From the sequence record NC_020079.1: a DNA stretch of 64,000 nt. One strand, 5' to 3'. Source of the DNA: Escherichia phage phAPEC8. The notes under the pieces are model-generated. The model did not search any database, was not told the DNA's origin, and was given only the letters and a program-made list of their open reading frames with translations. This document shows, piece after piece, positions 48,766-61,355 of the stretch (its first letter is position 1; each line of letters opens with the position of its first letter). The translations under genes and the position numbers were made by a program.

Positions 48766-48815
48766 TAATATAAAATTTTTGTCAATAAAAAAGGGAGCAA
48801 TAAGCTCCCTGATTA

Positions 48816-49775
48816 TTAGATTCCAATAATAGTTGCTGCTCGTTTATCCTTGGATCTGGTGTTTGCTCTACTACGTGACAAACCGCCGCAAGATTCACAA
48901 CGAATGATATCGAAAGAACTTACCGCAGTGTGGTATTGTTTACCAGTAACAACGTGAACGTGATCACTGCCACAACGAGAACAACGGACCTTCTCATCTG
49001 GGTAATAAGCGGATAAGTTAGGATGCTGTGGAATCCACGGAAGGATTTTCATATACAAATCACGGAGTGAAACAACATCACCATCATTGTAAATCTGCAT
49101 ACGTTCAAAAGCATCACGATCACCTTCACAACATGCTTTCCATAAAGGGAATCCCTCGTTATCCAGTTTTTCACTTTCTGTTTCGAAATATGCTCCCATT
49201 TCTTTAAGGGAGTTGGAAGGAAGTGCAAATTGTTTCTTAGCTGCCTTCAATGTATCAACAACTACATAATTAGAAGGAGGAGCCATATCGTGATATGCAA
49301 ATCGTTGGTTAATGTATGCACGGTCAAACTTATACCCGTTGTGTGCCACAACTACATCTGCCTCATTCAGAAGGTTCCAAAGATCTTGGCAAAGCTCCCA
49401 ATCATCTGTATGATCAATATCAAAAAGAGGATAAGAAGACAAGTTCTTACCTTCCACTTCACCAGTATACAGGTCAGCAGAAGAGTAAGATAACAAATAA
49501 CCCCTACGAATTACTTGATCTGGAGAAATGAAGGCTTTGAATCGACGGAAAGTATATGCAATCTCTGGTGCAGTTTCAACATCAATAATTTTAATAACGG
49601 GTTGTTTCTTTTTAACTAGCTCTTGTTTACTTGCTCCAAATCGTGCAAGGAAATCGTTCACTGTGCTTTTTCTTGTTGGACTACCTAAAACAATTGCTGC
49701 AATATTACGAGAAGACATACCCTCTGCACTCATACTAAGGATATCTGCTTTCTGCTCTTCTGTTAATCTGCTCAC
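48816..49775 (-). CDS. DEDD-type 3'-5' exonuclease-like protein with N-terminal HTH and C-terminal zinc ribbon
   Basis: IIDVET (Exo I), VVVAHNGYKFD (Exo II), C-terminal CSRCG..CESCGG. Confidence 0.5.
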   Translation of the reverse strand: MSRLTEEQKADILSMSAEGMSSRNIAAIVLGSPTRKSTVNDFLARFGASKQELVKKKQPVIKIIDVETAPEIAYTFRRFKAFISPDQVIRRGYLLSYSSADLYTGEVEGKNLSSYPLFDIDHTDDWELCQDLWNLLNEADVVVAHNGYKFDRAYINQRFAYHDMAPPSNYVVVDTLKAAKKQFALPSNSLKEMGAYFETESEKLDNEGFPLWKACCEGDRDAFERMQIYNDGDVVSLRDLYMKILPWIPQHPNLSAYYPDEKVRCSRCGSDHVHVVTGKQYHTAVSSFDIIRCESCGGLSRSRANTRSKDKRAATIIGI

Positions 49776-50461
49776 TCTGCCTCCTGTTGTGAGATGTATG
49801 ACTGAAGCATACTCTCAAATGTTGTATCGTCATTATCCCAGCGTTTCATGTATACCAACTGGAAAATTGTTTCTATCCATTCATCTGTTGTCATATGGAC
49901 TTCTTCTCCATCCCAAGAAGTAAAATTAACACCATCTGGGAACCATGAGTAGTAAGTATCTTTAACTGTTTGGAAAAGTTCTGCTTGAGTTTTACAAGCT
50001 GAAAGAAGATTAAAACAAGTAATATCTCCGAACTTAATATCAAAATCTTGATAAGGTCGGATACTATCTGTTTTATCTCCCATTAGCATCTGATATGCTA
50101 ACCAGTAACTGCCCCAACCTTTAACTTCTTTCTTTTTACCTTTATCTACGATCCATATATCGCCAATAGACTCGTCAATAAGAATTATATCTGGATTTTT
50201 AAATACTCCATCCTCTTTGTAGAAATTAAAAAGGATACTAGGAGTATGTAAACTATCTTTATCTATAGATACTACGATATAAGAAAATTTACCCGTCCTT
50301 TTATAATCTTTATAACCTTGGAAACCATACTTCTCTAACTCATCATCAGCTTCTATTACAGTAACAACATCACCATTGTGGAACTCCACAAGATAATCTT
50401 TGGTTTCTGAAAGCTGAAGTGGTTTGATATCTAATCGTTCAGATTTATATTCTACAGGCAT
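49772..50461 (-). CDS. hypothetical protein; reading frame stays open upstream to 50902 with GVGKT P-loop-like motif
   Basis: ATG ORF; 147 in-frame sense codons upstream without ATG/GTG/TTG. Confidence 0.45.
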   Translation of the reverse strand: MPVEYKSERLDIKPLQLSETKDYLVEFHNGDVVTVIEADDELEKYGFQGYKDYKRTGKFSYIVVSIDKDSLHTPSILFNFYKEDGVFKNPDIILIDESIGDIWIVDKGKKKEVKGWGSYWLAYQMLMGDKTDSIRPYQDFDIKFGDITCFNLLSACKTQAELFQTVKDTYYSWFPDGVNFTSWDGEEVHMTTDEWIETIFQLVYMKRWDNDDTTFESMLQSYISQQEAE

Positions 50462-50902
50462 TTTGAAGGCGTGTCTGAAAGTTTTTCCTACGCCAATAAC
50501 TCCGCAATATTTTTCTAAACGTAGATGTTTTAGAATACCTAAGACTTTTGTTTTAGCTGCTTGGAAGGTGTGTCCGATATCTTCTGGCGGGTATTGCTTA
50601 TCAATGATTTCGAACTCTTCCTTTGTGAAGGGACGTTTGTTTTTGGAGGCTCTTTCTGCATTTGTATCTCCTAGCCAACCTCCAATTTTAGTCTTGCTTT
50701 TACCCCAAAACTCTGTCTTATTTTTAAATTCCTTTTGAGCACCTGAAGGGATGTGCTTCGCAATGATTGTTCTTTTCTCTAATGCAGACGCTGCTTGGAA
50801 AGCGATCTGATCATAATCAATTGCAGCTATTGTTTCTTCATTGACATATAAATGAAGATCTTCAGGTTTAATTAAAATATAACCGCTAATATTTCCCCCT
50901 AG

Positions 50903-51112
50903 TTATTCATCGTCATCCTCTGTTGAGAATGTTTTAGTATACGGACATTGACGACTTTTCGGGATTGCTATAACTTCATCTTGGTTAGCGTTAGAATAGT
51001 AGCAATATTTTGTATTGCCATTAACTTCAGAATCAGACAAGATTAAAGTAATTTGACCTGCTGCTACTGTGAAACTAAAAGCTAAAAGAACGACTGTCAG
51101 AATCTTTTTCAT
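50903..51112 (-). CDS. small secreted protein
   Basis: signal-peptide-like MKKILTVVLLAFSFTVAAG; two Cys. Confidence 0.5.
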   Translation of the reverse strand: MKKILTVVLLAFSFTVAAGQITLILSDSEVNGNTKYCYYSNANQDEVIAIPKSRQCPYTKTFSTEDDDE

Positions 51113-51184
51113 AACGCCTCCTAAAAAGCCTACCTCATTAAGTAGGTAGGCATAATATCATAACTAATCCCGCAAGTCAAGAAC

Positions 51185-59142: not shown

Positions 59143-59214
59143 GGCCCTGTAGCTCAATGGGAGAGCTGTCGGCTCATAACCGATAGGTAGCTGGATCGAA
59201 ACCAGCCAGGGCCA
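59143..59214 (+). tRNA. tRNA-Met (anticodon CAT)
   Basis: manual cloverleaf: acceptor GGCCCTG/CAGGGCC, loop CTCATAA, T-loop GATCGAA, CCA encoded. Confidence 0.75.
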
Positions 59215-59219
59215 CCAAC

Positions 59220-59291
59220 GTCTTTATGGTGTAATGGATAGCACAGGAGTCTTCTAAACTCTTAGTCAAGGTTCGATTCCTTGTAAAGACA
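59220..59291 (+). tRNA. tRNA-Arg (anticodon TCT)
   Basis: acceptor GTCTTTA/TAAAGAC, loop CTTCTAA, T-loop TTCGATT. Confidence 0.7.
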
Positions 59292-59528
59292 CCAGAACAT
59301 TTTAACATGAATTAGCTCAAGTGATTTGAACCCACTACTGATCATGGTGGCAGAGAATGAGGCAAGTATGTCAGACATTATAAACAAAGGCCACGGTTAC
59401 ATTAGAAGACATAAATGCTCGAAGAGCACCGTTCGTGGAGAACGGGGGTTGGTGGAGTCACCATTCATGGTAAAATGTTTTAAAAAACTATTGACAACTA
59501 ACATTATTTTATGTTAGATTATAAGTAT

Positions 59529-59616
59529 GGAAGGGCAAATCGACGTGGCGACGAAAACGGTCTTGAAAACCGCCGAGCTTGAAAGAGCCTTGGGAGTTCG
59601 ACTCTCCCTCCTTCCG
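59529..59616 (+). tRNA. tRNA-Ser (anticodon TGA), type II
   Basis: long variable arm; loop CTTGAAA; T arm GGGAG-TTCGACT-CTCCC. Confidence 0.7.
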
Positions 59617-59623
59617 CCAGATT

Positions 59624-59706
59624 GGTAGATTGGTGAAATGGTAGCCACGACAGTTTGCTAAACTGTAGTCGGAAACGGCGTGTAGGTTCGAGTCCTACAT
59701 CTACCG
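59624..59706 (+). tRNA. tRNA-Ser (anticodon GCT), type II
   Basis: acceptor GGTAGAT/ATCTACC; stem ACAGT/ACTGT loop TTGCTAA; long variable arm. Confidence 0.7.
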
Positions 59707-59836
59707 CCAAGTTGTTTTTAATGTAGCGTTGCGGCTACTTACTTTAGCAGAGTAAATCTTCGGCAAGTGGCGGTAACCACTTTACCGATACCGCATAGTC
59801 AGTAAGGCGAATACTGGCTACTTTAAAAACAATTTT

Positions 59837-59917
59837 GTGAGATTGGCAGAGTGGTCGATTGCGGGGGACTGTAAATCCCTTCTGAAAGGCGCGGTGGTTC
59901 GAATCCATCATCTCACA
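59837..59917 (+). tRNA. tRNA-Tyr (anticodon GTA), type II
   Basis: acceptor GTGAGAT/ATCTCAC; loop CTGTAAA; long variable arm. Confidence 0.7.
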
Positions 59918-59926
59918 CCAAATTAA

Positions 59927-60009
59927 GATGAGTTGGCTGAATGGTTTAAGCGGCGGACTGTTAATCCGTGTTCGAAAGAACGATATAGGTTCAAATCCTA
60001 TACTCATCG
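59927..60009 (+). tRNA. tRNA-Asn-like (anticodon GTT) with 15-nt variable arm
   Basis: anticodon arm GCGGA-CTGTTAA-TCCGT matches E. coli tRNA-Asn; extra GTTC-GAAA-GAAC hairpin in variable region. Confidence 0.55.
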
Positions 60010-60019
60010 CCAGAATTAT

Positions 60020-60096
60020 GGACTTGTAGAGTTAAGGTAAACCCCCAGTCGCCAAGAGGCTTCTGGAATTGCAGGTATCGAATCCTGCCGAGTCCC
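60020..60096 (+). tRNA. tRNA-like element, non-canonical, anticodon unresolved
   Basis: 7-bp acceptor GGACTTG/CGAGTCC and T-arm-like GCAGG..CCTGC, but no canonical anticodon arm and 8-nt T-loop. Confidence 0.3.
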
Positions 60097-60102
60097 AGCT
60101 TT

Positions 60103-60174
60103 GCTCCTATAGTATAATGGCTATTACAACGGTTTTGTAATCCGTGGATCTCTGTTCGATTCAGAGTGGGAGCA
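60103..60174 (+). tRNA. tRNA-Thr (anticodon TGT)
   Basis: acceptor GCTCCTA/TGGGAGC; loop TTTGTAA; T arm CTCTG-TTCGATT-CAGAG. Confidence 0.65.
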
Positions 60175-60452
60175 CCAACACAACATTAAGGGCACTGTGA
60201 TTGATCGTCGTATCCTGTGCACAAGGTCTGTTCGAAAGACAGTGTTCTTAGTATTGTGTTGATCACACAAAAAGAGTTACCTGAAACTTGACCGGAGTAG
60301 GGTTGGATGGGGCAAAAGAAGAAGCGGCTCTCCCATCGACAGCAACGAAGAATAATATTTGACTTTGGTTTTGTATTATTTTAAGTTAGCTTACCGAACG
60401 TAGGGCTAGTCACCCAACGGGATACTCGTCACTGTCCCACTCAATAAAACTA

Positions 60453-60483
60453 TTGACAACCAATAGTAAAATGTAGTATAGTA
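60453..60483 (+). promoter_or_regulatory. promoter (AACTATTGACAA ... TAGTAT) upstream of tRNA-Gly
   Basis: -35 TTGACA, 16 bp spacer, -10-like hexamer. Confidence 0.5.
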
Positions 60484-60493
60484 AAGATGTAGG

Positions 60494-60564
60494 GCGTTCT
60501 TGGTGTAGCGGTAGCATTCCGTCCTTCCAAGTCGGCGGCACGAGTTCGATCCTCGTAGAACGCT
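60494..60564 (+). tRNA. tRNA-Gly (anticodon TCC)
   Basis: acceptor GCGTTCT/AGAACGC; D-loop AGCGGTAG; loop CTTCCAA; T arm ACGAG-TTCGATC-CTCGT. Confidence 0.7.
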
Positions 60565-60666
60565 CCAAATTATTTAATAAAGGGTTGCCAGAAAACTTTC
60601 TCTTTTACTCATGGTTTTCTCCTTCTCTCACACCTCTTCTGGTTGCCCTTCATTAAATGATTTATT

Positions 60667-60739
60667 GGTTTGTAGTGTAGTCCGGTAGCACACGACACTT
60701 TGACTGTCGTAGGTTTGGTTCAAATCCAGACAGACCAGC
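60667..60739 (+). tRNA. tRNA-Gln (anticodon TTG)
   Basis: acceptor TGGTTTG/CAGACCA; stem CGACA/TGTCG loop CTTTGAC. Confidence 0.7.
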
Positions 60740-60834
60740 CATATAACAAAGGTGAGTCACTACCTCAAGTGTGAAGTTAAAAACGAGGAGCCGCCGAACA
60801 CTTTCTTTTGCGGCGTACCTTTAGAATGTTATGA

Positions 60835-60908
60835 CGGAATTTAGCTCAGTTTGGTAGAGTGTACGCTTTGGGAGCGTATTGTCGCAGGTTCGAATCCTGC
60901 AATTCCGA
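60835..60908 (+). tRNA. tRNA-Pro (anticodon TGG)
   Basis: acceptor CGGAATT/AATTCCG; D arm TAGCTCAGTTTGGTAGAG; loop TTTGGGA; T arm GCAGG-TTCGAAT-CCTGC. Confidence 0.8.
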
Positions 60909-60917
60909 CCAATTAAA

Positions 60918-60988
60918 TGTTTCGTAGTTCAATGGTAGAACCCACGACTGATAATCGTGAGATACAAGTTCGATTCTTGTCGAAACAA
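60918..60988 (+). tRNA. tRNA-Ile (anticodon GAT)
   Basis: acceptor TGTTTCG/CGAAACA; stem CACGA/TCGTG loop CTGATAA. Confidence 0.75.
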
Positions 60989-60993
60989 CCAGT

Positions 60994-61062
60994 TTCCCGT
61001 TAGACTTACAGGATAAGAGTTCCACAATTTATTGTGACGCTGGTTCGAATCCAGCACGGGAT
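60994..61062 (+). tRNA. degenerate tRNA-like element (possible tRNA pseudogene)
   Basis: 6-bp acceptor TCCCGT/ACGGGA and canonical T arm GCTGG-TTCGAAT-CCAGC, but anticodon region is a palindrome with no 7-nt loop. Confidence 0.3.
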
Positions 61063-61069
61063 ACATAAT

Positions 61070-61145
61070 AGCGGGATAGAGGAGTCTGGTCGTCCTCGCC
61101 AGTTTCATATGCTGGAGATCATTGGTTCAAATCCAATTCCCGCCT
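61070..61145 (+). tRNA. tRNA with CAT anticodon (Met, initiator or Ile-lysidine)
   Basis: D arm GAGG..CCTC; stem CCAGT/GCTGG loop TTCATAT; A1-C72 mismatch. Confidence 0.6.
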
Positions 61146-61355
61146 CCAAATATCGCTTGCCAGCGGTATCTTTGAAGACCTTGCCTGGTTCCTTCTAAGA
61201 TGGAGGGGTGCGACTCCTTAACGCACAATTATAATAAAGCATTTCAAATTAACAGTATTTATTAGCCTCCTTATTGGAGGCTTTTTGCTATCTATTGAAT
61301 AAAACTTGACTTATTATTTTTTATATGTTAAGATAAAGTTTAGGAGGATTTTATT

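Follow-up and report, generated by a model that had tools for sequence, protein, structure and literature searches.

A predicted flap-endonuclease-type exonuclease gene of phAPEC8-like coliphages probably starts at a conserved near-cognate AUU codon

In Escherichia coli reporter assays, AUU-class codons reach between a few percent and about 15% of the initiation rate of AUG. The near-cognate class formed by AUA, AUC, AUU, and CUG has been placed at about 1 to 2% of AUG initiation in E. coli, with methionine at the N terminus, and the only confirmed natural near-cognate starts in this species are those of infC and pcnB, both AUU (10.1101/063800). In another reporter system, an AUU start gave 6 to 8 times less product than AUG, and infC, which starts 3 nucleotides (nt) past the stop codon of the gene upstream (thrS; UAA GGU AUU), showed an about two-fold gain when that upstream cistron was translated (PMC3592434). 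For tailed phages, the Phage Annotation Guide names ATT, ATC, and CTG as start codons missed by automated callers (PMC8785237). Here, we describe a minus-strand gene of Escherichia phage phAPEC8, located in a 64,000-nt stretch of record NC_020079.1 (the window), for which most GenBank records give a 229-residue putative exonuclease beginning at an ATG. The locus is very probably one intact gene for a 372-residue, flap endonuclease (FEN)-type 5'-3' exonuclease begun at an AUU further upstream. Like infC and pcnB, it would combine a near-cognate AUU with a Shine-Dalgarno (SD) sequence in an arrangement where a weak start limits or regulates output, and, as in infC, the start would lie a few nt past the stop of the preceding gene. 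It differs in being a phage DNA nuclease gene, whereas feedback dependent on initiation factor 3 (IF3) belongs to infC, and in that its relatives drift among AUU, AUC, AUA, and CUG, whereas infC is known for AUU; the phage start is predicted from sequence. The guide, for its part, holds no case of deeply conserved near-cognate starts within one gene family.

A single minus-strand frame holds a 69-residue upstream protein, its stop codon (TAA, 50905-50903), and then 376 sense codons that run from 50902 to the TGA at 49774-49772 (translation of 51112..49772). The ATG at 50461 is the earliest ATG, GTG, or TTG in this frame. An earlier note on this DNA had described a 147-codon open extension before that ATG, lacking all three codons and bounded by the upstream TAA, and the open reading frame (ORF) listing and the translation agreed with it. 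The window contains 108 stop-to-stop ORFs of 100 codons or more, and of these the exonuclease ORF has by far the longest stretch free of canonical starts (147 codons, with 59 for the next and a median of 6). ATG, GTG, and TTG make up 5.46% of the in-frame codons in the long ORFs of the window, and the chance of 147 coding codons without any of them is about 2.6e-4. In a scan of the whole window for genes that combine a strong SD with a near-cognate codon and a long canonical-start-free stretch, only the exonuclease gene qualified; the sole further match in the near-cognate start scan was a 56-codon ORF at the threshold. Start usage relaxed throughout the genome was rejected as an explanation, the exonuclease gene being alone of its kind in the window.

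The extension belongs to the exonuclease protein. A tblastn search with the 376 residues matched 1378 phage records, 899 of them at a query coverage of at least 80%, and the single exonuclease genes of about 370 residues found in Vequintavirinae (KNP2, PBES02, Mydo, and the rV5-like phages), in ICP1, and in Pakpunavirus aligned from residue 2 to 20 through to about residue 367. The profile phrog_107 ("exonuclease") spanned residues 14 to 371 in one stretch (1e-55), and the extension and the 229-residue part, searched separately, matched adjacent parts of it. The comparison with orthologues that the earlier note had proposed was run, and the upstream sequence was colinear with the N-terminal third of the exonucleases of about 370 residues, not unrelated to them. 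Homologues were aligned in sets of 13 (A1) and 67 (A2) sequences. The acidic residues D25, D27, and E38 of the extension were invariant in A1 and at least 90% conserved in A2, and E180, D182, D183, D210, D212, D272, and D275 (the IEADD, DKD, and GDxxD motifs) were invariant in the 67 sequences. Between the extension and ten diverged relatives, the proportion of synonymous differences (pS) was 0.66 to 0.81, i.e., saturated, with a proportion of nonsynonymous differences (pN) of 0.09 to 0.35; the rest of the gene gave similar values, and pN/pS within the extension was about 0.1 to 0.45. The colinear homologues, the invariant acidic residues, and this purifying selection confirm the earlier impression that the extension is coding.

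A 372-residue model built from the 67-sequence alignment (predicted local distance difference test, pLDDT, 96.4; predicted template modeling score, pTM, 0.90) showed structured elements from residue 5 onward and a PIN-like alpha/beta nuclease fold resembling solved FEN enzymes. The carboxylate clusters expected of the FEN two-metal site (N-terminal D, EADD, DKD, and GDxxD) were present, and by sequence they would be equivalent to the T5 residues. Sixteen of the 67 homologues matched the FEN family Pfam PF02739, with a best E-value of 1.7e-6. Together, the model and the homology predict that the gene product is a member of the FEN/5'-3' exonuclease family, although at a distance: sequence identity to T5 D15, E. 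coli ExoIX (Xni), T4 RNase H, and mycobacterial FenA is 12 to 20%, and the window protein exceeds T5 FEN in length by about 100 residues.

The same fold bears on a P-loop-like motif that had been pointed out in the extension, which reads ...LEKYCGVIGVGKTFRHAFK ahead of Met148. The motif is there, but it ends 6 residues short of the annotated methionine instead of directly before it, and the match to the Walker A pattern (G-x4-G-K-[ST]) is genuine as a pattern but not as a function. Relatives carry GAIGKGET, GVAGSGPT, GVLGESGT, or GVLGGSGN at this place, with E, P, or G for the lysine, and only G130, G133, F138, and R139 of the segment are invariant. In the model, the motif sits within strands 127 to 137, a beta-hairpin of the FEN fold, and no nucleoside triphosphatase (NTPase) was found among the structural matches with significant scores. 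A P-loop NTPase was rejected on these grounds: the lysine is not conserved, the strand-loop-helix is lacking, and the fold is that of a FEN. It is more likely that the conserved G..G...FR forms part of the arch region of the nuclease, along with Y148 and K149.

Translation most likely starts at the ATT that lies 4 nt past the G tract; the earlier note had pointed to this codon, a few nt after the tract, as a possible non-canonical start. The predicted duplex with the 3' end of 16S rRNA at this codon (−9.3 kcal/mol) equals or exceeds in strength that of 66% of the window's long ORFs, while the ATG at 50461, at +0.4 kcal/mol, falls in the lowest 9% of ORFs, i.e., it has no SD. Spacers of 4 nt are the commonest in this phage (17 of 35 ORF starts preceded by GGAGG) and occur in both neighbouring genes. 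Met148, the residue of the annotated start, is a leucine in many relatives; the ATG is an ordinary internal methionine codon.

To follow the start position across relatives, sequences (numbered with L) were gathered from IMG/VR, metagenomes, Logan/ENA assemblies, and GenBank, and the homologous codon was located in each. The ingroup comprised 29 distinct proteins (50 to 100% identity). In 29 of 29, the codon at the start position was ATT, ATC, ATA, or CTG, and in none was it ATG, GTG, or TTG. ATT is carried by Phapecoctavirus, the phi92-like phages, the L021 group, L027, L032, L033, L037, and L038; ATC by L010/phiWec179, L013, L014, L029, L030, and L051 to L055; ATA by L034, L035, L056, and L057; and CTG by L036. 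Parsimony on a neighbour-joining tree required at least seven changes among near-cognate codons and none to ATG, GTG, or TTG. All 30 distinct start contexts, which include the window and four outgroup sequences, had an AGGAGG-like SD with a spacer of 4 to 6 nt (4 to 5 nt everywhere except in PBES02, and thus throughout the ingroup), and in all of them the start-position codon lay 20 to 24 codons ahead of the IDYDQ motif. The aligned codon in the outgroup was canonical: ATG in PBES02, GTG in Mydo, and TTG in the rV5-like phages and KNP2. In SSBI34 and PBES02, a methionine aligned to the start position (MGYPVV versus I(S)GYILI).

Stop codons restrict where the ORF can begin. In L014/L020, L052, L053, and L055, an in-frame TAA directly abuts the ATC, so the ORF cannot begin earlier there; in the remaining relatives, an in-frame stop lies at most 10 codons upstream, and the codons in between mostly form or flank the SD. 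On the downstream side, L033 to L035 have an ATG 9 codons after the start position, without an SD, and three of the four differences between L034 and L035 within the 9 codons separating the ATA from this ATG are synonymous, which argues that those codons are translated. Residue 2 is G, S, T, or A in every sequence, as is typical of processed N-termini.

Several points weigh against this reading. A conserved internal isoleucine codon would be equally expected to produce the ATT/ATC/ATA pattern, and the family-wide codon set (I, L, V, and M) is also a conservative set of amino acids. The codon pattern by itself therefore does not carry the case; the in-frame stops, the SD spacing, and the methionine aligned in distant relatives do. 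Taken alone, the lack of ATG after at least six third-base changes is only weakly significant ((2/3)^6, about 0.09). Searches of Pfam, NCBIfam, and PDB sequences with the window protein gave no match at threshold, and a profile of the 67 homologues gave only a chance match to PDB sequences; since the protein itself falls below the Pfam and NCBIfam thresholds, including that of PF02739, its FEN membership rests on structure prediction and transitive homology. Initiation at AUU is likewise something we infer from sequence and model, and a rationale in terms of nuclease dosage or toxicity is our interpretation.

Of the options that the earlier note had left side by side, the non-canonical ATT start gained support from the SD geometry and the conserved near-cognate codons. 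It is unlikely that the full-length protein starts instead at another near-cognate codon downstream (ATT 50878, ATT 50872, ATA 50830, or ATT 50821). Several in-frame ATT and ATA codons do lie between the SD and IDYDQ, and the first three candidates would keep D25 and D27, but their SD duplexes are weak (−5.5 to −1.0 kcal/mol) and they sit at least 16 nt from the SD. They are also not conserved in relatives, where the codon 4 to 5 nt past the SD is always near-cognate, and they are at odds with the structured elements modelled at residues 5 to 14 and with the methionine of SSBI34 and PBES02, which aligns to the first codon. An arrangement with two products, the full-length nuclease from the ATT and a separate 229-residue C-terminal protein from the ATG at 50461, also appears improbable. 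Gene callers chose this ATG in more than 100 records, and internal starts are known in other phage genes. However, the absent SD and the leucine of many relatives speak against initiation there, and the 229-residue fragment would lack the D25/D27 motif and the first strand and helix of the PIN-like core.

The same fragment could be the sole functional product if the 147 upstream codons were the decaying remnant of a recent N-terminal truncation. The lack of a canonical start and the 229-residue form annotated in most records fit this, but we reject it as very unlikely: the frame is open in 63 near-identical records and in relatives saturated at synonymous sites, the extension is under purifying selection (pN/pS as above) with invariant residues, and the SD and the near-cognate codon are conserved. 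Read-through or frameshifting at the stop of the 69-residue gene, giving a fusion protein, is rejected as no more probable. The TAA is in frame with the extension in the window, and a 444-residue "fusion" of the upstream signal-peptide protein and the exonuclease exists in the protein database (cluster P0005, 48 members). Its DNA (L029 1501-2835; Logan SRR30397360) has a TAG that the caller read as glutamine, and this fusion was rejected as support because it is a genetic-code artefact. Moreover, in phi92 and L032 a different frame carries the upstream stop, two in-frame stops occur in L014, L052, L053, L055, and the L021 group, L033 and L036 have an unrelated methyltransferase or HNH gene upstream, and a fusion would put a signal peptide on a DNA nuclease. 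Least probable of all, close to negligible and likewise rejected, is a sequencing or assembly error that hides a canonical start or a frameshift. Nothing beyond the oddity itself favours it, while at least 62 phage genomes, sequenced independently, carry identical or near-identical sequence, 125 records contain the 68-nt start region, and the same open frame and architecture recur in dozens of diverged relatives and in independent metagenome assemblies.

If translation begins at the AUU, initiator formylmethionyl-tRNA would read this near-cognate codon, which the strong SD 4 nt upstream would place in the ribosomal P site. Ribosomes that finish the upstream ORF may, in addition, re-initiate at the AUU, 12 nt past its stop; throughout the clade, no more than about 15 nt separate the upstream stop from the start codon, and translational coupling to the upstream ORF is plausible. 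As AUU-class initiation runs far below the AUG rate, the weak start probably limits the amount of nuclease. It would keep the dose of this DNA nuclease low, at a strength set by the strong SD and possibly by re-initiation. Whether the near-cognate start is kept by selection, as a control of nuclease dose or timing acting through IF3 activity, translation of the upstream ORF, or both, is a more tentative matter; we regard this as possible, though rather less probable than its contrary. Were it true, the gene would be a phage counterpart of infC control, the clade would provide the first case of AUC and AUA initiation codons conserved in nature in genes expressed in E. coli, and changing the ATT to ATG should harm the phage or the infected cell. 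AUU-class codons retained through saturating divergence, and never replaced by AUG, GUG, or UUG, offer a natural system for asking why weak starts persist, and the same gene family can be used to gauge how far a strong SD and translational coupling offset a weak start.

An RNA structural switch at the start was also considered. The start region of the window folds modestly by itself (z = −2.45), but the consensus structure around the start in 14 diverged relatives contained 0 predicted pairs, and the switch was rejected because the fold is not conserved among them.

Thirty-one phage records share at least 99% identity with the region, and another 32 share at least 95%; all belong to phAPEC8-like E. 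coli myoviruses (Phapecoctavirus, Stephanstirmvirinae). The records of PNJ1809-36, ASO2A, phAPEC8_ev052, and WPEC4 give just the 229-residue "putative exonuclease" from the ATG and leave a 441-nt gap, which in WPEC4 is filled by two small out-of-frame coding sequences (CDSs) of 40 and 30 residues. An extra "hypothetical protein" is found here in the WPEC2, WPEC4, and WPEC6 records (50539-50661 on the minus strand of the window, plus a neighbouring small ORF; 2440-2562 and 2572-2664 in L004). These small ORFs lie out of frame within the N-terminal coding region of the exonuclease and are almost certainly spurious. In the phi92 record, the protein has 344 residues and begins at an internal GTG, and a remark reads "No RBS identified; weak Prodigal statistics". 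The closest precedent is ESCO13_00118 (AQM50955.1; KX552041.2/NC_047770.1), the same gene in a near-identical phage, annotated as a 372-residue "putative exonuclease" CDS from the same ATT and with a ribosome-binding site (RBS) feature; it differs from the present case in being a database annotation only. Among the 60 matches listed for the start region, the ATT start is annotated only in the two ESCO13 entries. The ESCO13 genome announcement does not mention it, and the literature searched held nothing usable on this ATT start or on FEN toxicity.

The 229-residue database protein is thus an artefact, produced because gene callers recognise no start codons other than ATG, GTG, or TTG. The exonuclease gene is present in about 130 public genomes of phAPEC8-like and phi92-like coliphages, and several of these phages are therapy candidates. 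In nearly all the records inspected or listed, the product is short of 143 N-terminal residues, among them part of the active site; the shortfall is 28 to 35 residues in records of the phi92 and phiWec types. Databases derived from such records inherit the error. That ATT, ATC, and CTG serve as phage starts that callers miss was already known, as was the ESCO13 annotation of this start; what we add is that the real gene encodes the full-length FEN, that public records truncate it systematically, and that a whole clade conserves near-cognate starts. The coordinates of the locus are collected in Table 1.

Table 1. Features at and around the exonuclease gene, in positions of the window
Feature	Position	Strand	Remarks
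Proposed full-length CDS, 372-residue predicted FEN-family 5'-3' exonuclease	49772..50890	-	ATT 50890-50888 to TGA 49774-49772
Proposed initiation codon ATT (AUU)	50888..50890	-	Aligned near-cognate codons in relatives; ESCO13 annotation
Shine-Dalgarno sequence AGGGGG	50895..50900	-	4 nt 5' of the ATT; AGGAGG at the same place in relatives
N-terminal region absent from most annotations, residues 2-143	50462..50887	-	First FEN motif IDYDQIAF (D25, D27) and E38
GVIGVGKT, residues 130-137, Walker A pattern G-x4-G-K-[ST]	50480..50503	-	Chance match
ATG start of most GenBank records, internal Met148	50459..50461	-	Without SD; Leu in many relatives
69-residue gene, predicted signal peptide, phrog_4641	50903..51112	-	TAA 12 nt before the ATT; signal peptide annotated on the phi92 orthologue
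RNase_H_2/DnaQ-like exonuclease gene, downstream	48816..49775	-	GTG start overlaps the FEN stop (GTGA)
Sigma-70-like promoter match, TTGACT-17-TATTAT, TG extension	51152..51180	-	Upstream of the three-gene unit; consensus match only
Terminator-like hairpin closing the three-gene unit	48792..48810	-	Terminator annotated at the same place in phage ASO2A

The predicted FEN gene is the middle one of three. The start of the downstream RNase_H_2/DnaQ-like gene, within the overlap at 49772-49775, has an AGGAGG 4 nt upstream, and the two genes look tightly coupled in translation. The 69-residue protein encoded upstream has a conserved C-terminal motif, QCPYTKTFS...DDDE; its gene always lies between rdgC and the exonuclease gene in the clade and is an odd partner for genes of DNA metabolism. 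The promoter match upstream of the unit ends exactly at the onset of a terminator-like hairpin, GCCTACCT...AGGTAGGC followed by a T run, 5' of the 69-residue gene (51128-51180 on the minus strand), and the phage ASO2A record lists this hairpin as a terminator. The pair is either a promoter and a terminator placed back to back or a promoter with a hairpin at the 5' end of its transcript.

The gene preceding the exonuclease start varies among relatives. In Vequintavirinae and intermediate phages (L036 600-1133; L006 and L039 to L041), an HNH endonuclease gene replaces the small secreted-protein gene at this place, and in L033 (731-1465) a DNA methyltransferase gene stands there, directly 5' of the exonuclease start. 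The junction 5' of the exonuclease start appears to be a hot spot for mobile or accessory genes.

The window also contains 11 tRNA genes, clustered at 59143-61148, among them two for tRNA-Met(CAT) and one for tRNA-Ile(GAT). The phage tRNA-Ile(GAU) was considered as a special initiator and rejected, as it has a normal U1:A72 pair and lacks a G:C-rich anticodon stem. One of the two tRNA-Met genes (61070-61148, plus strand) has an A1xC72 mismatch atop the acceptor stem and an initiator-like T-loop (UUCAAAU), without the three G:C pairs of the anticodon stem, and could encode an unusual initiator-like or Ile2-type tRNA.

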